Notes under the pieces: model-generated
Database searches by the model: none
Seen by the model: the letters and a program-made list of their open reading frames with translations, nothing else
Told to the model about the DNA's origin: nothing
Shown here: positions 828 to 59,942 of the stretch, in pieces
How positions within the stretch are numbered: the stretch's first letter is position 1
Layout of the letters: the number at the start of each line of letters is the position of its first letter
Origin: Planctomycetota bacterium
Lineage (GTDB): Bacteria > Planctomycetota > JAJSAM01 > JAJVHW01
DNA: 64,000 bases
NCBI GenBank assembly: GCA_021414065.1
Contig: JAIOPE010000004.1
Location: 38,636-102,635 of the forward strand
Direction of reading: 5' to 3'
Program-made: the position numbers and the translations under genes

Positions 828-2213
<1,386 letters not shown>

Positions 2214-2225
2214 GTGTCGCTCCCG

Positions 2226-2834
2226 TCAAACCTTCTTCGGCACCTTCAGCGTCTCGACCACATCGTCCACGAGCCCGTAGTCCTTGGCTGCGCGGGCGTC
2301 CATGAAGCGGTCGCGGTCGGTGTCCCGCTCGACCTCGCTCTCCGGTCGTCCGCAGTGACGCGAGACGATCGTGGTGAGCGTCTTCTTGAGCTTCAAGATC
2401 TCCTCTGCCTGGATCTCGATGTCCGCAGCGGTGCCGCGTGCGCCGCCCCAGGGCTGGTGGATCATGATCCGCGAGTTCGGCAGGGCGAACCGCTTGCCGC
2501 GGGCGCCGGCCGCGAGCAGGACTGCGCCCATCGACGCCGCCTGTCCGATGCAGTAGGTCGCGACGTCACACTGGACGAACTGCATCGTGTCGTAGATCGC
2601 GAGACCTGCCGTGACGAGGCCGCCCGGCGAGTTGATGTAGAGGTTGATGTCCTGGTGCTTGTTCTCCTTCTGGAGGAACAAGAGCTGTGCGATCACCACG
2701 TTGGCGACGTGGTCGTCGATTGCCGAGCCGATGAACACGATGCGGTCTTCGAGGAGACGGGAGTAGATGTCGTAGGCGCGCTCGCCGCGCCCCGTCTTCT
2801 CGATGACCATCGGGATGATGAAGTCGCTCGTCAT
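2226..2834 (-). CDS. clpP: ATP-dependent Clp protease proteolytic subunit ClpP
   Basis: 202 aa. Motifs [25 protein letters not shown] and the catalytic Ser context GQAASMG. The start overlaps the tig stop (TGATG). Confidence 0.97.
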
Positions 2835-4168
2835 CAGATCTTCGCCTCCGGTTCGACGACCTTGACGACACCGCGCAGATCGGCCACGGTCTTCTTCTCC
2901 CGCAGCTCGGAGCGGAGCGCGGCGAGGATTCCCTGGCTCTCCAGTGTCGCCTCCATCTGGGCGAGGCTCCGATCGTACCGCTGCGCCATTCGAGCGATCT
3001 CCTGGCGGATCTCGCTCTCTGTGACGAACACCTTGCGCTCCGCGGCGACCTTGTCGAGCAGGAAGCTCGCGCGGAGGTCGCGCTTGACGCGCTCGGCCGC
3101 TGCGCCGACGAGCTGCCGCAACTGCGCCTCGATGTCCGCGTCGGCGATGCCCTGGCGGCGGAACTGGGCCTCGTAGCGGCGCAGCATTCGCTCGGTCTCC
3201 GACGCGATGAGCGACGGCGGCACGTCGAACGGCACGGCCTGGAGAAGTGCTTCGACGATCGCGCCGTCGAGGGCTGCGTCGCGGTTGCCTTCCGCCTGGC
3301 GCTCCAGCTTCTTGCGAAGCTCCGCGCGCATGTCTGCGACGTCGTCGTAGTCCATGTCCTTCGCGAACGCGTCGTCGGCCTCGGGCAGGTCCACGTGCTG
3401 CAACGTCTGGATCGTGAGGGCGATCTTCGCGTCCTGTCCGCGGTGGGCTTCGTCACGGAAGTCGTCGGGGAGCTTCTGCGTGAACTCGGACGTCTCGCCC
3501 TTCCGCTTCCCGAGGAGGCCGGCCGAGAGGCCGTCGATCTGCATTCCGCCGAGCACGTCGGGGCCGTGCTGCCACTCGACGTCAGCCGCTTCGACGATGG
3601 TCTCCTCGCCGACCTGGACCTTCACCTGGAGCGAAACGATGCCCTTCTCGCGGAGGCCGTCGTCACCGCCGTCGCGGACCGTGGCGCGCTCCTCACGCAG
3701 GCGCTGGACGTCGGCGTCCACGTGCGCCTCGGTGACCGTGAGATCGGGGCGGGTGACGCTCAGCTCCGCGAGATTCGGGAGCTCGAACGTCGGCCGCACG
3801 TCGATGCCGATGTCGAACGCGAAGTCCCGGCCGCGCGCCAGTTCGACCTTGCCCCACTCGATGCGCGGGCTGCCGACCGCGAGGAGCTTCTTCTCGTCGA
3901 TCACCTCGTCCACGGCCGACTGCACGAGGCGTTCCTTCACCTCTTCGAGGACCTTCGCGCCGAGTTTCGCCTCGACGAGCTTCCTGGGCGCCTTGCCCTG
4001 GCGGAAGCCGGGGAACTGGACGGTCTTCTCCACGTTGCGGAAGGTGCTCTCGATCTCGGCGTCCACGCGGGCCTGTGGGACGCTGATCTTGATCAGGCGC
4101 GAGCAGGGGCCGGTCTCCTCGATCTGGGCCTCGACGGGGTGTGCGGCGGGGGACGACTGGGAAGACAT
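2834..4168 (-). CDS. tig: trigger factor
   Basis: 444 aa. The N-terminal ribosome-binding signature [15 protein letters not shown], the length and the position upstream of clpP-clpX all fit trigger factor. Confidence 0.92.
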
Positions 4169-5228: not shown

Positions 5229-5312
5229 GGGAGAGTGGCGAAATGGCAGACGCGCGGGTCTTAGGAGCCCGTGGAGCAATCCTTGCGGGTTCGAGTCCCG
5301 CCTCTCCCACCA
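5229..5312 (+). tRNA. tRNA-Leu (anticodon TAG), CCA encoded
   Basis: Cloverleaf folded by hand. The acceptor stem is GGGAGAG / CTCTCCC and the anticodon loop is cTTAGga. There is a long variable arm (class II tRNA), a T arm GCGGG-TTCGAGT-CCCGC, discriminator A and a 3' CCA. Confidence 0.9.
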
Positions 5313-38591: not shown

Positions 38592-38885
38592 CGTGTAGCG
38601 AGCCGACCGGGCCCCGGTACCGTTCGCGCCTCGTGCCTACCTCGTCGGGGACGTCGCCACGAGCGCCCGGTCACATGCTCCTCGGTCCGGCCCGGCCGCG
38701 CTGGGCGCGGATGCTCTACGAGCAGGGCGAACGTGTGTCGAGCCTCCTGTACCGTTCGCGACTCGTGCCTACCTCGTCGGGACCGCCGCCACGAGCGCCG
38801 GGTCACCAGCTCCTCGGTCCGGCCCGGCCGCTCTACTCAGCGAGTGCGCGTCGCGTAGAAACGCGTGCGTCGAGCCCCCCGGTTG
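38592..38885 (+). repeat. family-B repeat, about 2.1 tandem units (period 131 bp)
   Basis: GTACCGTTCGCGnCTCGTGCCTACCTCGTCGGG...CACGAGCGCC...GCTCCTCGGTCCGGCCCGGCCGC occurs at 38618 and again at 38749. A third unit starts at about 38866. The same cores recur at 46486 and 51175. Confidence 0.8.
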
Positions 38886-43557: not shown

Positions 43558-43694
43558 CCGGGATCATCCACGAAGCTCCGCGCCTGGACGAGGCCCCTCG
43601 TCGCCGACTGGCCGACCGCTGCGTTGGGACCCTTGCGTGGCTTGACAAAGCCGACGCTGCGGGTCCCGCCTTGCGGTCAGCTCCGCGGATCTCG
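43558..43694 (+). repeat. family-A repeat, truncated copy (first ~137 bp of the 232-bp unit)
   Basis: CCGGGATCATCCACGAAGCTCCGCGCCTGGACGAGG...GACCGCTGCGTTGGGACCCTTGCGTGGCTTGACAAAGCCGACGCTGCGGGTCCCGCCTTGCGGTCAGCTCCGCGGATCTCG aligns with the full copies at 59679 (same strand) and 50905 (opposite strand). No second terminus is present. Confidence 0.75.
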
Positions 43695-43713: not shown

Positions 43714-44166
43714 TCACGACGCAGCAGCGAGTATCCGGTGCAGGTCCGCGGGCGCAGCGGCGTGCTCGAGGTCGCGGCGGAAGTCCGACTTCTTCATCGC
43801 GTTCATCACCGAAGCGAGGAACTGGAGGTAGCGCGGCTGACGCTCCTGCGGGCCGACGATCAGCACGATGTGGTGCACCGGGCGTCCGTCGATCGACCCG
43901 AAGTCGATGCCGTCTCGCGACCGTCCGTACGCGAGGACGAACTCCGTGACGCCCACCAGCTTCGCGTGGGGGACTGCAACGCCGAGTCCGATGCCGGTCG
44001 ACAGCACGTTCTCGCGGGCCGTGACCGCCTCGAGCACCGCGTCGGCGTCGGGGACTTCGGGCACGCCGCGGAGCGTGTCGACCATCTCGCGCAGCGCCGT
44101 CTCTTTCGTCCGGCTCGCCAAGTCGATCACGCGCGCCGGAGCGAGATACTCACCGAGATGGATCAT
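43714..44166 (-). CDS. PTS EIIA-type (PtsN-like) regulatory protein
   Basis: 150 aa. Shows the EIIA(Ntr/Fru) pattern: ...RENVLSTGIGLGVAVPHAKL (phospho-His context) ...VHHIVLIVGP. Confidence 0.8.
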   Translation of the reverse strand: MIHLGEYLAPARVIDLASRTKETALREMVDTLRGVPEVPDADAVLEAVTARENVLSTGIGLGVAVPHAKLVGVTEFVLAYGRSRDGIDFGSIDGRPVHHIVLIVGPQERQPRYLQFLASVMNAMKKSDFRRDLEHAAAPADLHRILAAAS

Positions 44167-45862: not shown

Positions 45863-46666
45863 ATGTTCGGAGGCATCGTCGCCGGCCTGGGTCGAATCGT
45901 CTCGGTGAAGCCGACGGCGGGGGCTGCGCTCCGCCTCGACGTGGACGTGTCCGTACTCCGCCGCAGGCTCGTTCCCGGCGCGTCGGTTTCGGTCTCCGGC
46001 GTGTGTCTGACGGTCGTTCGGGCTGCGCCGGCGGGTCGGGTCTCCCGTCGGGCGTCGTTCGACGTCGTCGGGGAGACGGTCCGGAGGAGTACGCTCGGCG
46101 GGCTCGCGCCGGCCGATGTCGTCAACCTTGAGGGCGCTCTGCGCGGCGGCGACGAGGTCGGCGGACACCAGGTCTCGGGGCACGTGGACGGTGTCGGCGA
46201 GGTTGTCGCGGTGGACCGGCGAGCCGACGAAACCTGGATGACCATCCGCGCGCCGCGCGACGTCCACGACACCCTCGTGCCGAAGGGCTGGGTCGCCGTG
46301 GACGGTTGCAGCCTGACTGTCGCCGAGCTTGGCCCCGCCAGTCGGACGCACGGCACGTTCTCCGTCGCGCTCATTCCGACGACGCTGGCCATCACGACGC
46401 TCGGCCGCGCCGAACCCGGTGCACACGTCAACCTCGAGGGCGACCCGCTCGGCAAGCACGTGGCGAAGTGGATGGCGGCGCGGGCGGTACTTTCCGCGAC
46501 TCGGGCCTACCTCGTCGGGGACGACTTTGCGAGTGCCGAGTCGGAGGCTCCTCGGTCCGGCCCGGCCGCTCTGCGGAGTGAGAGCGCGTCGGAGAGGCAA
46601 TCCGGCGTCGCGCCTGCCCCCGCGGCCCGCAAGTCGCGCCGCCGGCCGCCTGTCAGAAGCCGCTGA
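45863..46666 (+). CDS. ribE: riboflavin synthase alpha chain, with about 60 extra C-terminal codons that run through a family-B repeat
   Basis: MFGGIVAGLGRIV...GASVSVSGVCLTV...GGHQVSGHVDGVG...KGWVAVDGCSLTV...ALIPTTLAITTLG...VNLEGDPLGK is the duplicated lumazine-binding barrel. After ...KHVAKWMAARAV the ORF continues through repeat sequence to the stop at 46664-46666. Confidence 0.85.
   Translation: MFGGIVAGLGRIVSVKPTAGAALRLDVDVSVLRRRLVPGASVSVSGVCLTVVRAAPAGRVSRRASFDVVGETVRRSTLGGLAPADVVNLEGALRGGDEVGGHQVSGHVDGVGEVVAVDRRADETWMTIRAPRDVHDTLVPKGWVAVDGCSLTVAELGPASRTHGTFSVALIPTTLAITTLGRAEPGAHVNLEGDPLGKHVAKWMAARAVLSATRAYLVGDDFASAESEAPRSGPAALRSESASERQSGVAPAPAARKSRRRPPVRSR
46486..46615 (+). repeat. family-B repeat, single unit inside the ribE 3' extension
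   Basis: GGTACTTTCCGCGACTCGGGCCTACCTCGTCGGGGAC...GCTCCTCGGTCCGGCCCGGCCGCTCTGCGGAGTGAGAGCGCGTCGGAGAGGCAA aligns with 51175-51310 and, more distantly, with 38618-38870. Confidence 0.8.
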
Positions 46667-50903: not shown

Positions 50904-51137
50904 ACCCGGATCACTCACGAAGCTCCGCGGGAGAACGGCGTGCAGCGCATGAACAGCTTGCGATGTACGCCGATCCGAGGCTCGCTCGCGCGACGACAGA
51001 CCGCCCTGGGCGAGATCCGCGGAGCCGACCGCAAGGCGGGACCCGCAGCGTCGGCTTGGTCAAGCCACGCAAGGGTCCCAACGCAGCGGGCGGCTCGCGG
51101 GCTCGTCCAGGCGCGGAGCTTCGTGAGTGATCCGGGT
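50904..51137 (-). repeat. family-A repeat, full 232-bp unit with perfect 25-26-bp terminal inverted repeats (MITE-like or structured RNA)
   Basis: CCCGGATCACTCACGAAGCTCCGCG at 50905-50929 is the exact reverse complement of CGCGGAGCTTCGTGAGTGATCCGGG at 51112-51136. The interior aligns base-for-base (in reverse orientation) with 59679-59910. Confidence 0.85.
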
Positions 51138-51174
51138 CCAACAACCACGCTTGACGTCATCCTGTTCCCTGGCA

Positions 51175-51355
51175 GGCGCTTTCGTCCGCGACTCGGGCCT
51201 ACCTCGTCGGGGACGCCCCTGCGAGTGCCGCGTCTCCTTCTCCTCGGTCCGGCCCAGCCGCTCTGCTCCGCGGAAGCGCGTCGGGTGAGGCAACGTCCGT
51301 CGGTCCTCCGCGTTCTCGTCCGCGGCTCGGGCCTACCTCCTCGGGGGCGTCCGGG
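51175..51355 (+). repeat. family-B repeat, about 1.4 tandem units (period 134 bp)
   Basis: TCGTCCGCGACTCGGGCCTACCTCGTCGGGGAC...CTCCTCGGTCCGGCCCAGCCGCTCT occurs at 51182. The restart TCGTCCGCGGCTCGGGCCTACCTCCTCGGGGGC is at 51316 and abuts the stop of the HEAT gene. Confidence 0.8.
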
Positions 51356-53116
51356 CTAGTAGATCGACAGCACCTCGTTCAGCGGGTCGTTCGTGAGCGA
51401 GTAGTCGCCGTCGATTGCGAACTGCGCGAGCTTCGGCGGGTCGGACGGATCGGCGAGCACACCCAGCGCGACCACTGCATAGGCCCGCATGATGTCCTGC
51501 TCTTTTCGGTTCTGCCACACGCCGACCAGCAGCGGGACCGATTCATTGACCCGCAGGAGGCCGAGAGCCATGGCTGCGCCGCCGCGCTCGTAGATCGTCC
51601 CGCCGCCTCGGAGCGTCGCGAAAAACCAGTCCCTCGCCTTCGCGTCGTGCAGCAGGCCGAGTCCGACGGCCAGGTTCGCCCGAAGTCGCGGATCGTTCGT
51701 CGCTTCGAGCTCCTTCCGCAGCGTCGGCGCGGACTCCGCGATGCGAGCCATTCCGATCGCCAGCGCGCCGTAGCCCTGCGCCCAGATCTTGCCGCGGTCC
51801 TTGACCTGCGCTTCGAGCACGGACCGCGCGCCCGTGTCACCGATCATCCCGAGCGCGATGGAGATCGCACCGCGCCGACTTTCGCTCGTCTCCGCTTCGA
51901 GCGCCTTGCGCAGGATCGGACCCGCCGCCTCGTCGCGACCGATGCCGAGCGCGAGTGCGACGAACGGTCGGTCCTGGTCGTCGGCTCCGGGAAACAGCTT
52001 TCGCAGTTGCGCGAGGATCGGCGCGTCGGCGAGGCCGCCGATCGCAACGGCCGCGTAGTGCCGCACCAGCGGGTCATCGCTCGTGTGGAGCGCCTGGAAC
52101 AGCATCGCCAGGGCGTCGTTGTCCTTCGTCGTCGCGGTGCGGCCGAGTGCGACGGTCGCCGCGCGCCGGAGCGACACTCGCGCCGCGGCGTCTCCGATCA
52201 CGGAGATGAACGCCGGGATCGACGCGCGGTCGGCCGCCCGACCCAGCCCCAGGATCGCGAATGCGCGAACCTGATCGTCGTACGCACGGTCCTCCGACGC
52301 CCGGCGGAGCACCGGCAGAACGTCGGCCTCGCCGGTGAAGCCCATCGCGACCAGGCACGAAGCGAGGAGCTGCGGGTCCTCGCGATGGCGCAGTTCGTCG
52401 CCGATTCGCATGTAGTCGATCAGCGACGTGGCGGAGGCCTTTCCGCCGATCAATCCCAGCGAGAATGCGGCGAACGAGCGGTGGCGGGTCGTCGCCTGTT
52501 CGTCGGCGAGAACCGTCCGCAGCGCCGGGATCGCGTCGGCACGGCCGAGCAGACCGAGCCCCAGGATCGCCGCGTCGCGGACGTCCTGGTGCTCGTCCGA
52601 CGCGAATGCCTTCCGGAGCGGCTCGAGCCCCGACGCATCGCCTGACTTCCCGAGCGCGACCGCCGCGGCCGTGCGGACCTCGAAGCTCGGATCCGAGAGC
52701 GCCTCGATGAACAGTGGTACGACGGCCTCGCGCACGAGCAGATCCTGCGCGTCGCGGACCGCGGTAGGGTCCTCCGGCTTCGCGCCGGCGGAGTCCGGCT
52801 GCGCACCGGGTGCGGCACCGCCCGGAGTGACCGGGCCCGCGGACTCGCGCATGCCGGGCCCGAGCCCGAGGTGGAGGTACTTGTTGTTCGCCCACCACGT
52901 TTCCCACGCGGTGATCGGAGAAGGCCCGTCGGATGGTCCCGGCGGCGGCCCGCCCGGCCCGCCGCCGGTCGTCCCCCGGCCCGGCGGCCCCCGGTACGCC
53001 CCGCCGTGCGCGAGTGCCTCGTTGCCTGTTGCGGCGGACGTGACGAGTGCTGACGCGACGAGCAACGCACGGCAGATGGCGCGTCGGACCGACGGGTGGG
53101 CCGAGTGTGTGAACAT
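51356..53116 (-). CDS. exported HEAT-repeat protein
   Basis: Signal peptide (ICRALLVASALVTSAATGNEALA). A Gly/Pro-rich stretch and the WETWWANNKY motif follow. After that come at least 10 HEAT/PBS-lyase-type units (D..VR..AA.ALG..G...A...L). Confidence 0.75.
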   Translation of the reverse strand: MFTHSAHPSVRRAICRALLVASALVTSAATGNEALAHGGAYRGPPGRGTTGGGPGGPPPGPSDGPSPITAWETWWANNKYLHLGLGPGMRESAGPVTPGGAAPGAQPDSAGAKPEDPTAVRDAQDLLVREAVVPLFIEALSDPSFEVRTAAAVALGKSGDASGLEPLRKAFASDEHQDVRDAAILGLGLLGRADAIPALRTVLADEQATTRHRSFAAFSLGLIGGKASATSLIDYMRIGDELRHREDPQLLASCLVAMGFTGEADVLPVLRRASEDRAYDDQVRAFAILGLGRAADRASIPAFISVIGDAAARVSLRRAATVALGRTATTKDNDALAMLFQALHTSDDPLVRHYAAVAIGGLADAPILAQLRKLFPGADDQDRPFVALALGIGRDEAAGPILRKALEAETSESRRGAISIALGMIGDTGARSVLEAQVKDRGKIWAQGYGALAIGMARIAESAPTLRKELEATNDPRLRANLAVGLGLLHDAKARDWFFATLRGGGTIYERGGAAMALGLLRVNESVPLLVGVWQNRKEQDIMRAYAVVALGVLADPSDPPKLAQFAIDGDYSLTNDPLNEVLSIY

Positions 53117-55334: not shown

Positions 55335-56137
55335 CGCCGCGGCCCGCGCTCTATGCGGCGGCGATCGGGGCGTGCTGCGGCATCGTCGGCGGCGCACTCG
55401 GCGGGTGGCTTGCGACACGCGACCCCGGACGGGGGCGCGGTGCGCCCGAGACGATCCGCGGAGACATTGACCGACTGGAGGCGGGCACGCTCTCAGCGCG
55501 GGCGGACACCGCAGATGCGTTGCAGGCTGTCGTGGCGCGTCTGGAGACCCTGGAACGGGCCGCCGCCAATGGAGACCCGGCGGGCGACATCGTGGGGACC
55601 GCGAAGGCACTCGCGGCCGACATCCGCGCGCTACGCGACGGAACCGCGCGCGACCTCCGCGCCGCCGACGCTCGGATCGCGGGACTGGAACGACGCGTGG
55701 ACGAACTGATGTCGCTCGTCGCACTCTCGCCGCTCTCCGCGCCGTCCACACGCGAGGCGACGCCCACCGCCGAGGAGGAGGCGGTTTGGGTCAACTTGGC
55801 TCAAGACGCCGACCCGATGCGGCGGTTCTCGGCCCTCGCCATGCTCGGCCGCGGGCGCTCCGATCGGAGCATCCGCGCGTCGCTCGAGGCGCTGAAGGAC
55901 CCCTCGGAACTCGTGGCGTGGCAGGCCGCACAGAATCTGGGACGGTTCGGCGAGCACAGCGCGGTGCGTGACCTCGCAGCACTGCTGCGTCACGACGCGG
56001 TTCTGGTCCGACACGCAGCGCATGAGGCGCTTCGCAGGCTCGGTGCGCCCGACACCGGCTTCGATGCGAGCGCGCTGCCGGCAGAGCGGAAGGCCGCCGT
56101 CGAGGCCATCGAACGATGGGTCGTGGAGACGCAGTAG
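55331..56137 (+). CDS. membrane-anchored coiled-coil / HEAT-repeat protein
   Basis: The GTG start overlaps the upstream stop (GTGA). The TM helix is LYAAAIGACCGIVGGALGGWL. A coiled-coil region follows. The C-terminal HEAT units read DPMRRFSALAMLGR...PSELVAWQAAQNLGRFG...DAVLVRHAAHEALRRLG. Confidence 0.65.
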   Translation: MTPRPALYAAAIGACCGIVGGALGGWLATRDPGRGRGAPETIRGDIDRLEAGTLSARADTADALQAVVARLETLERAAANGDPAGDIVGTAKALAADIRALRDGTARDLRAADARIAGLERRVDELMSLVALSPLSAPSTREATPTAEEEAVWVNLAQDADPMRRFSALAMLGRGRSDRSIRASLEALKDPSELVAWQAAQNLGRFGEHSAVRDLAALLRHDAVLVRHAAHEALRRLGAPDTGFDASALPAERKAAVEAIERWVVETQ

Positions 56138-56363
56138 TCGGCGCCCGGACGCAGTAGCGACTTTCGGCACACGTTGGGGTTGCGTTCCGTGGGCGGAAGC
56201 CGGACGCATCGCCAAACGTGGGACCGCCACCGCGCCCTTCGCTAGGATCGGCCCTTTCCACTCCGCTGCGGACGCCGAAAGTCCGCGGATGTGCCGCAGA
56301 ACTGCCTCGCCGAGCGACCGGGCCACCGGGTTGCGAACGCCGGGCGCACGCGAAGGAACAGGC

Positions 56364-59541: not shown

Positions 59542-59626
59542 CGAGGGGGTCCCGTTCGCTCGGCGAGGAACGTGCACGAGACGCCGCGCTCGGACGAGCT
59601 TCCACCCGGCGCGTATCGCAAGCAGA

Positions 59627-59673
59627 TCCCGCGACGCACGCCGGTTTCCCGCGGACCCTCGCGCATGATCCGG
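59627..59673 (+). repeat. family-A repeat, solo 3'-terminal fragment (47 bp) abutting a full copy
   Basis: TCCCGCGACGCACGCCGGTTTCCCGCGGACCCTCGCGCATGATCCGGG equals the last 47 bp of the full unit (59864-59910) apart from one mismatch. It is separated from the next unit by only CGAG. Confidence 0.75.
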
Positions 59674-59676
59674 GCG

Positions 59677-59912
59677 AGCCCGGATCATGCGTGAGGGCCC
59701 GCGCCTGGGCGAGCCTGCGGGCCGACCGCTGCGTTGGGACCCTGGCGTGGCTTGACGAAGCCGACGCTGCGGGTCCCGCCTTGCGGTCAGCTCCGCAGAT
59801 CTCGCCCAGGACGGTGTGTCGCAGCTCGCACGTGCCTCGCCTCGGCGTCCGATGCACGGGACTCCCGCGACGCACGCCGGTTTCCCGCGGACCCTCGCGC
59901 ACGATCCGGGCT
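59677..59912 (+). repeat. family-A repeat, full 232-bp unit with imperfect 25-bp terminal inverted repeats
   Basis: The left end is CCCGGATCATGCGTGAGGGCCCGCG (59679-59703). The reverse complement of the right end is CCCGGATCGTGCGCGAGGGTCCGCG (59886-59910), matching at 22 of 25 positions. The unit has the same length and interior as 50905-51136. Confidence 0.85.
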
Positions 59913-59942
59913 AGTCTCCGCCGTTCCCAGGAGGACGTCCGC

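Follow-up and report, generated by a model that had tools for sequence, protein, structure and literature searches.

A Probable Miniature Inverted-Repeat Transposable Element Family with Hypervariable, Self-Complementary Termini in the Planctomycetota

Introduction

Bacterial miniature inverted-repeat transposable elements (MITEs) are non-coding, multicopy sequences of 70–300 bp that carry terminal inverted repeats (TIRs) of 15–30 bp, lie near genes, are co-transcribed and form robust stem-loops (PMC3733652). Two groups of insertion sequences (ISs) are pertinent to the element described here: the IS5 family, in which IS5 itself targets YTAR and generates a 4-bp duplication (PMC5009759) and IS711 likewise targets YTAR (PMC2266754), and IS701, whose members show a highly conserved duplication of exactly 4 bp (PMC2266710). 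Repetitive extragenic palindromic (REP) doublets forming hairpins (REPINs) are high-copy extragenic hairpins in which two-sided compensatory changes are common and which occur in tandem clusters (PMC3116915). In this study, we analyze a 64,000-nt stretch of DNA from a member of the Planctomycetota (NCBI GenBank assembly GCA_021414065.1, contig JAIOPE010000004.1, positions 38,636–102,635, herein the window; 68.9% G+C) and a dispersed, strongly folding element of 232 nt that recurs within it. A first-pass annotation, made by a model from the letters of the window, had read this element either as a MITE or as a structured RNA. We favor the first of these readings and assign a probability of about 0.75 to the element being a MITE-type DNA transposon that is non-autonomous and without a coding role, has a YTAR target and generates a 4-bp target-site duplication (TSD).

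Results and Discussion

The MITE reading is borne out by sharp element boundaries, duplication of CTAG or TTAA, an open reading frame (ORF) that is restored once the element is taken out, empty orthologous sites, high copy number and mixed orientation. Full copies are 232–247 nt long, non-coding and bounded by 25-bp TIRs (20–25 of 25 positions complementary in five copies); TSDs flank them, although the two full copies of the window retain theirs on one side only, and there are dispersed copies and empty sites.

Copies of the Element in the Window

The two full copies, A and B, are both exactly 232 nt long, lie on opposite strands and share 80.2% ungapped identity (blastn E 1.7e-57); the positions, strands and terminal sequences that the first-pass annotation had given for them are correct, and two truncated copies, C and B', had been overlooked. 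The copies and their flanks are as follows:

50905..51136, + strand: copy A, a full element of the abundant A-type subfamily; metagenome contigs diverge exactly at both of its ends
50905..50929, + strand: left TIR of copy A, the 5' arm of the closing helix (P1), 25/25 complementary to 51112-51136, with CCCGGATCACTCACGAAGCTCCGCG in both arms
51112..51136, + strand: right TIR of copy A, the 3' arm of P1
50901..50904, + strand: TTAA, the left flank of copy A and a TSD member; the right flank, TCCA at 51137-51140, is decayed or rearranged
59679..59910, − strand: copy B, a full element of the rare B-type terminus subfamily, with arms CCCGGATCGTGCGCGAGGGTCCGCG and CCCGGATCATGCGTGAGGGCCCGCG that are 22/25 complementary
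59911..59914, strand not applicable: CTAG adjoining copy B on its 5' side, a TSD member; the window has only 8 CTAG in all
59587..59674, − strand: copy B', a truncated 5' part (element positions 1–88) in head-to-tail tandem with copy B
59675..59678, − strand: the 4-nt spacer CTCG between B and B', at the position of the expected shared TSD and one base off CTAG
43558..43694, − strand: copy C, a truncated 3' part (element positions 107–232), nhmmer E 1.9e-38

Copy B' is 97.9% identical to copy B over 48 nt (nhmmer E 2e-13), while copy C carries an 11-nt insertion that is found in further copies too and starts 19 nt past the stop codon of a phosphotransferase system (PTS) EIIA-type gene (43714-44166). 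The variation in length among full copies (232 vs. ~243–247 nt) stems from an insertion near position 195.

At least 10 terminus variants were seen, two of them together in this one window; at least five of the variants come from loose ends and partial copies. A-type termini are perfect; the B-type amounts to ~4–6 genome equivalents in the freshwater metagenome X1, which is the source metagenome and holds 81% of the window's sampled words, and is near zero in three others. Fixed sequence is confined to the tip of the terminus, CCCG(G/C/A)A, and to a few sites further in, with positions 7–21 being hypervariable.

Boundaries and Target-Site Duplication

Element-bearing contigs of five metagenomes lose their similarity to the window exactly at 50905 and 51136. 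Beyond these ends the flank consensus reaches an agreement of only ~0.5, with the exception of the four adjacent bases: in four metagenome runs, the consensus is CTAG just before 50905 and just after 51136. A minority class has TTAA on both sides, in a share that is similar on each side (~31–45% in X1 and X9, 7–16% in X13 and X4), and one TTAG flank was seen. Some of the flank consensus sequences show CCAG at the position expected of CTAG, which CTAG-to-CCAG conversion by short-patch repair would fit.

Full copies at three loci outside the window resolve individual insertions. These are L004, from a planctomycete metagenome-assembled genome (MAG) in ENA; L005, an ENA metagenome contig; and L007, from NCBI GCA_034680565.1. 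SucC, compared with that of the window, is 87% identical for L004 (via L006, from the same assembly), 79% for L007 and 81% for L002, a MAG (GCA_022072415.1) that provides an orthologous region. Each of the three full copies has CTAG directly at both ends. The copy in L004 interrupts an ORF, and removal of the element together with one CTAG gives ...VGEYLDCGRLENGFARLRCASCGAEHLLAFSCRTRNFCPSCQAKR..., across which a match to PF14319 (Zn_Tnp_IS91) spans the junction uninterrupted (E 9.6e-21). In L005 and L007, the duplicated CTAGs supply the TAG stop codons of neighboring genes, the L007 element being an independent copy at the stop codon of the ortholog of window gene 51356-53116. L002, which is syntenic over 21 kb, has no element, and its spacers measure 16 and 48 bp as against 555 and 431 bp in the window.

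The first-pass annotation had seen no clear TSD. This is wrong for the family, and the oversight is explained by the window itself, in which the right flanks (TCCA for copy A, CTCG for copy B) have decayed. It had also named clear TSDs, along with a matching autonomous IS, as what would mark the element as an ordinary MITE; of the two, the TSDs are present, at L004, L005 and L007 and in the consensus of the four metagenomes.

Both target tetranucleotides are rare where these copies reside. CTAG occurs 8 times in the 64-kb window vs. 184 expected from base composition, and TTAA 3 times vs. 37.5, so chance cannot explain a CTAG beside copy B and a TTAA beside copy A. The other YTAR sequences are also depleted in the window (CTAA, 2 vs. 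83 expected; TTAG, 4 vs. 83), whereas GATC shows a 3.3-fold enrichment. Of the CTAGs that remain, at least three (17358, 32882 and 51356) coincide with the stop codons of ORFs, and the same holds in L005 and L007.

Tandem junctions with spacers of 4–5 nt were found between B and B' in the window and also in X1 (a joint of 51137 to 50901, and a loose end CGAG+CCCGGACC...). Such tandem copies are to be expected if every insertion leaves behind two further targets of a kind that is otherwise very rare. As a separate observation, CTCG or CGAG stands in place of CTAG beside copies at three independent places (the B–B' spacer at 59675-59678, L001:1472-1475 and the X1 tandem junction behind 51136), and is either a mutated CTAG or a separate junction type.

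The same flanks could arise if a hairpin element were moved as folded single-stranded DNA, in the manner of REPINs with their REP-associated tyrosine transposases (RAYTs) or of IS200/IS605, by an HUH tyrosine transposase that recognized the shape of the closing helix and a short tip and cut at CTAG on each side; the apparent duplication would then consist of the target CTAG and an element-borne CTAG. The empty-site reconstruction at L004 fits insertion 3' of CTAG by an element ending in CTAG equally well, and palindromic CTAG or TTAA flanks would lengthen the stem by 4 bp. However, TTAA on both sides in matching proportions is the picture of a true duplication and makes an element-borne cleavage site contrived. 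Known HUH elements, moreover, have a separate hairpin at each end, and their ends are not paired together. REPs are 20–40 nt with GTAG or CGTC heads (PMC3733652). No RAYT or Y1 gene was seen (none in the window), and the sole HUH-family gene nearby, an IS91-type gene in L004, is itself the victim of an insertion. On this evidence, and on that of the mismatch types below, we regard movement as a folded single strand as distinctly unlikely.

The IS91-type gene deserves mention in its own right. It lies at L004:1896-2878 and would encode a rolling-circle (HUH) transposase whose N-terminal zinc-binding domain is interrupted by the element copy; its annotated product, of 229 aa, is a read-through of the element that ends at the TAG of the duplicated CTAG. 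We considered this gene as the partner transposase and rejected it, as it is interrupted by the element. IS91-type elements, moreover, are not known to have inverted repeats or target duplications.

Copy Number, Distribution, and Orientation

Sequencing depth in X1 points to a very large family: the single-copy flanks have a depth of 8.3, the element junctions a summed depth of ~700–830 and the core a summed depth of 1,700–2,400, and 46 different left and 36 different right junction contigs are present. Copy number is of the order of 200–290, provided that the junction contigs belong to genomes of similar abundance, and the density in the window (two full and two partial copies per 64 kb) agrees with this figure. 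Stated more broadly, we place the family at roughly 100–300 copies in this uncultured planctomycete.

Beyond X1, the invariant core turns up in runs from bioreactors, biofloc, drinking water, sediment, activated sludge and wastewater. Proteins with element-derived sequence, as well as the nearest named SucC relative (81% identical), are labeled Planctomycetes or Planctomycetota in public MAGs. Public MAGs that contain the element are GCA_034680565.1, the "K8T90" Planctomycetes MAG and ENA ERZ24842432. Neither the exact core pattern (GGGACCC-N8-GGCTT-N4-AAGCC-N6-GGGTCCC) nor a looser one that took divergent copies into account was matched in GTDB representative genomes, JGI metagenome contigs or viral contigs, three collections that are without this lineage or drop its short, repeat-broken contigs; plasmids and phages searched with blastn gave no match to the element either. 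Relative to neighboring genes, orientation is mixed among seven copies, two being sense (C and the L004 copy) and five antisense (A, B, B' and the copies of L005 and L001).

Protein queries made from ORFs of the element (six-frame concatenated, and a single-frame profile) against 5.8 and 1.8 billion sequences yielded five informative proteins, two of which led to the full copies in L004 and L005. ORFs through the element match only element read-throughs or fusions, plus one marginal and unrelated plant protein. An ORF that spans the whole element was considered as a coding sequence and rejected, the chance expectation of such an ORF being ~20% at this G+C content.

Several public protein records are products of this family. 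The last ~10 residues of the seryl-tRNA synthetase P0001 (NCBI MCE9634580.1) are replaced by 44 that an element copy encodes on its reverse strand; in L001 (1441-1526), a related Logan contig, serS ends normally and an element copy starts 34 nt after the stop codon. The "hypothetical proteins" P0004, P0005, P0126 and P0127 are element read-throughs. The family thus accounts for protein calls in public MAGs that are spurious or chimeric, the synthetase and the read-through hypothetical proteins among them, and for the shattering of assemblies from this lineage into 1.5–6 kb contigs.

Fold of the Element and the Question of a Functional RNA

Folded as single strands, copies A and B have energies of −163 and −165 kcal/mol (z −11.7 and −9.6, respectively, vs. 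shuffles), and the common fold from five full copies is Y-shaped, comprising helix P1, a variable left branch and a long right hairpin, with the following positions in copy A:

50930..51004, + strand: variable left branch (element positions 26–100), with its own hairpin at 32–68 and the lowest between-copy identity
51005..51111, + strand: conserved core (element positions 101–207), a long imperfect hairpin that is nearly invariant in copies A, B and C

The nested stems GGGACCC...GGGTCCC and GGCTT-N4-AAGCC, both contained in the core, occur in every copy, and their combined pattern is found 3 times in the window vs. 0 in 100 shuffles. These two stems of the first-pass annotation therefore stand; a third that it had listed with them, GACCGC...GCGGTC, is limited to copy B, the 3' side in copy A being GCGGGC. 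The base of the right hairpin (CCTGGGCGAG / CTCGTCCAGG) and the inner stems are the most conserved portion of the element, and the core has the highest summed depth in all metagenomes. Positions 41–90, by comparison, have a depth 3–5 times below that of the termini and core (metagenomes, at least 80% identity). Minus positions 26–100, the element becomes one long hairpin of ~157 nt, a form that would suit movement as a folded single strand.

Strong folding of this kind invites the other half of the first-pass annotation's proposal, namely that the copies are structured noncoding RNA genes or cis-regulatory RNA motifs with helices under selection at the RNA level. The folding z scores and the significant covariation described below are what such selection would produce, element sequences are present in contigs of metatranscriptome libraries, and the forward strand folds better than the reverse by 6–10 kcal/mol in the four copies tested, a small effect. 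Nonetheless, this account fares poorly against the remaining evidence. The copies lie in both orientations relative to flanking genes, one of them inside an ORF; target duplication and empty sites mark the sequence as an insertion; and there are hundreds of copies per genome. Rfam 15 contains no match to the element, whether at the gathering score or with the threshold relaxed to E ≤ 1, and a scan for sites resembling promoters or terminators likewise found none. Discrete transcripts of ~230 nt are not seen among contigs from the RNA libraries, which run past the element boundary into CTAG and unrelated flanks and are therefore attributed to read-through transcripts or DNA carry-over. Together with the mismatch types considered next, these observations lead us to set the structured-RNA reading aside as most improbable. 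A co-transcribed helix of this strength must presumably affect the host mRNA, as a side effect and not as the element's reason to exist; effects of co-transcribed MITE helices on host mRNA have been described for other MITEs (PMC3733652).

Covariation of the Paired Arms

The first-pass annotation had noticed that the termini differ between copies while each copy keeps its two ends self-complementary. The pattern is genuine and extends to internal helices. In the covariation set, which consists of five full copies from four or five genomes, within-copy arm identity is 25, 22, 22, 25 and 20 of 25, as against ~18.5 of 25 for the same arm between copies (leaving aside the near-identical pair A and L005); what separates the termini of A from those of L005 is one A-T to T-A exchange, made on both arms. 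Across the common fold, 22 of 87 pairs have changed on both sides with pairing kept in at least one sequence, a level reached by none of 500 column shuffles, and a control in which partners were slid by 1–3 columns gave 1–6 compensated pairs; with only five full sequences, these figures are indicative. Ten of the compensated pairs lie in P1 and the others are spread across the internal helices, including core helices 5–9.

Mismatch types bear on whether this pairing was maintained in RNA or in DNA. The structure predicted on the forward strand contains 24 G·U vs. 8 A·C cells, and the structure predicted on the reverse strand inverts the ratio; over the union of pairs predicted from both strands, the counts are 25 G·T vs. 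28 A·C cells (five sequences, a small sample). We accordingly rejected the forward-strand G·U excess as a sign of RNA selection, since it is an artifact of predicting structure on one strand and vanishes in the union. As mismatch types are strand-symmetric, we attribute the pairing to a process at the DNA level and not to a functional RNA. The same symmetry counts against the folded single-strand route, in which transposition is strand-specific, even though the retention of structure rather than sequence at the ends, and compensation through all helices, are features that such a route would share.

A DNA-level process leaves three possibilities for the paired arms: (a) required pairing in a single-stranded or cruciform state, (b) template switching or repair and (c) a transposase lineage of its own for each terminus type. 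The last two together describe an ordinary MITE whose ends are complementary only as a by-product, whether of separate IS lineages per terminus type or of template switching and mismatch repair; this is a variant of the explanation that we prefer and differs from it only in the cause of the covariation. Template switching is an established mutational route by which quasi-palindromes are corrected. Given that the full copies, five in number, stem from four or five different genomes (SucC 79–87% identical), different partner transposases are plausible. Likewise, the abundant A-type arms are perfect and the rarer or more diverged types have 20–22 of 25 positions paired, as would fit decay after insertion, and the mismatch types are strand-symmetric. 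On the other side, there are at least 10 terminus variants with two types in this window, A and L005 differ by a single exchange on both arms, and nine or ten internal pairs, needed by no transposase, are compensated as well; template switching is also inefficient across a spacer of 180 nt. Internal compensation and the number of variants weigh against (c) alone, and strand symmetry fits (a) with DNA and also (b). Overall, we consider a pure by-product origin possible, if doubtful. The hundreds of copies with hypervariable paired termini provide a natural data set in which to ask whether end pairing is a requirement of mobility or a by-product of mutation.

A more specific form of (a), which we put forward tentatively and think rather unlikely, is that the ends are recognized by shape: the arms, extended by the CTAG or TTAA flanks, would pair in a single-stranded intermediate, and this pairing would be a true requirement of mobility. 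Under shape recognition, the invariant core hairpin would be the true protein-binding site, and the element would be moved by a putative recombinase.

Proposed Mechanism and Points Against It

The copies themselves show an inserted, repeated and non-coding unit with inverted termini, which either duplicates a palindromic YTAR tetranucleotide or is bounded by one. In our reading, the MITE inserts at palindromic CTAG (most copies) or TTAA (a minority) and duplicates this target, such that intact copies are flanked by the same 4 bp, and its ends are the 25-bp inverted repeats beginning CCCGGA. We hypothesize that it is mobilized in trans: a DDE transposase, encoded elsewhere in the genome, would cut at YTAR with a stagger of 4 nt, and candidate sources are the IS5 family (IS5 subgroup) or, with less specificity, IS701. 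Because no autonomous element with matching termini was found, the DDE assignment is drawn from the duplication. The target sites, 12- to 23-fold depleted in this 69% G+C genome, often lie at TAG or TAA stop codons, and insertions therefore fall at gene ends, between genes and sometimes beside an existing copy, giving tandems. The complementarity of the arms may reflect a need for pairing at some step of propagation, or quasi-palindrome correction by template switching or repair. A transposon confined in this way to a tetranucleotide that the host genome has nearly eliminated would have its insertions channeled to stop codons and to earlier copies of itself.

Several observations weigh against this interpretation. 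The covariation comes from only five full copies in four or five genomes. For a terminal repeat that is read by a protein, hypervariability at positions 7–21 would be unusual, and compensated internal helices are not needed by a cut-and-paste transposon of double-stranded DNA. Each full copy in the window lacks an intact duplication on one side (TTAA/TCCA for A and CTAG/CTCG for B). Copies flanked by CTAG would look no different had only the TA within it been duplicated, as happens with IS630 or the IS427 group; the TTAA/TTAA class favors a 4-bp duplication and is the only class that argues for 4 bp. Finally, no autonomous element with these termini was found in the window or in the public collections scanned, which are without the element altogether. 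In agreement with the first-pass annotation, no transposase domain was detected among the 40 window ORFs scanned with Pfam.

Other Features of the Window

The window carries housekeeping genes: clpXP, the trigger factor gene, rplS, trmD, lexA, sucCD and pilus genes. Its only Rfam match is a tRNA gene of 81 nt at 5229-5309 (+), which scores 55.8 bits as tRNA and has a long variable arm. The sucC ORF is open for 132 codons (55968-56363) upstream of the conserved MKLHEYQ start; this extension has no homology, and the real start of sucC is therefore most likely 56364.

A second, unrelated dispersed repeat of ~125–130 nt, with the core CGCGACTCGGGCCTACCTCGTCGGGGACG...GCTCCTCGGTCCGGCCCGGCCGC, is also present:

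38614-38745, + strand: second repeat unit
38746-38880, + strand: second repeat unit
46484-46615, + strand: second repeat unit
51176-51309, + strand: second repeat unit
51310-51360, + strand: second repeat unit

Units of this repeat often occur in tandem pairs at a spacing of 132–134 nt, and their summed depth of 1,600–3,000 (X1 and a sludge RNA library) is above that of the element studied here. Two of the units stand between copy A and gene 51356-53116 and are absent at the orthologous site in L002.

Comparison with Known Mobile Elements

Among described systems, the closest in kind are the hairpin MITEs, such as Correia/NEMIS of Neisseria, ERIC/YPAL of enterobacteria, RUP and Nezha, which resemble the element in size, TIRs, copy number, folding and short TSD. 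The present element had no sequence similarity in the plasmids, phages, Rfam library and collections scanned, and the usual MITE pattern is reversed here: conservation is highest in the internal hairpin and, among the paired parts, lowest at the termini. Literature searches on the targets of IS701/IS5 and IS1380, on planctomycete MITEs and on CTAG brought up supporting background or nothing of relevance. Correia elements target TA, unlike the present family, in which the target is CTAG or TTAA with a 4-bp duplication.

With the IS5 family the element shares its YTAR target, represented by CTAG (major), TTAA (minor) and one TTAG, although copies flanked by CTAG also fit a TA duplication. Ends of the IS5 group begin with GG or GA. 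The terminal consensus of IS701, ---YACT-Y--YR (PMC2266710), is not matched by the CCC tip found here. Neither a transposase nor a full-length IS with CCCGGA termini was found that would tie the element to IS5 or IS701.

REPINs invite comparison through their compensatory changes; they are, however, ~70–100 nt long and have conserved REP 16-mer ends around a covarying spacer, whereas in the present element the ends vary and the core is conserved. The heads of REPs and REPINs are GTAG or CGTC (PMC3733652), and REPINs are not described with a TSD, as opposed to the CCCGGA tip and target duplication here. The element is accordingly neither a REP nor a REPIN in size (232–247 nt with a 180-nt structured interior), head motif or duplication.

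A further parallel is the integron attC site. These sites are imperfect palindromes, the arms of which differ between copies yet remain complementary, and they are recognized as folded single strands. Their setting is an array next to an integrase gene, in which they flank the gene cassettes, and they have a GTTRRRY core site; none of this is seen here, where the elements are instead dispersed with target duplications.

Read as a MITE, the element is a new family from a poorly sampled lineage, the unusual trait of which is a set of hypervariable paired termini around an invariant core. Should its ends prove to be recognized by shape, it would represent a MITE-sized mobile element specified by structure, bridging the inverted-repeat transposons and the hairpins of the REPIN and attC type.

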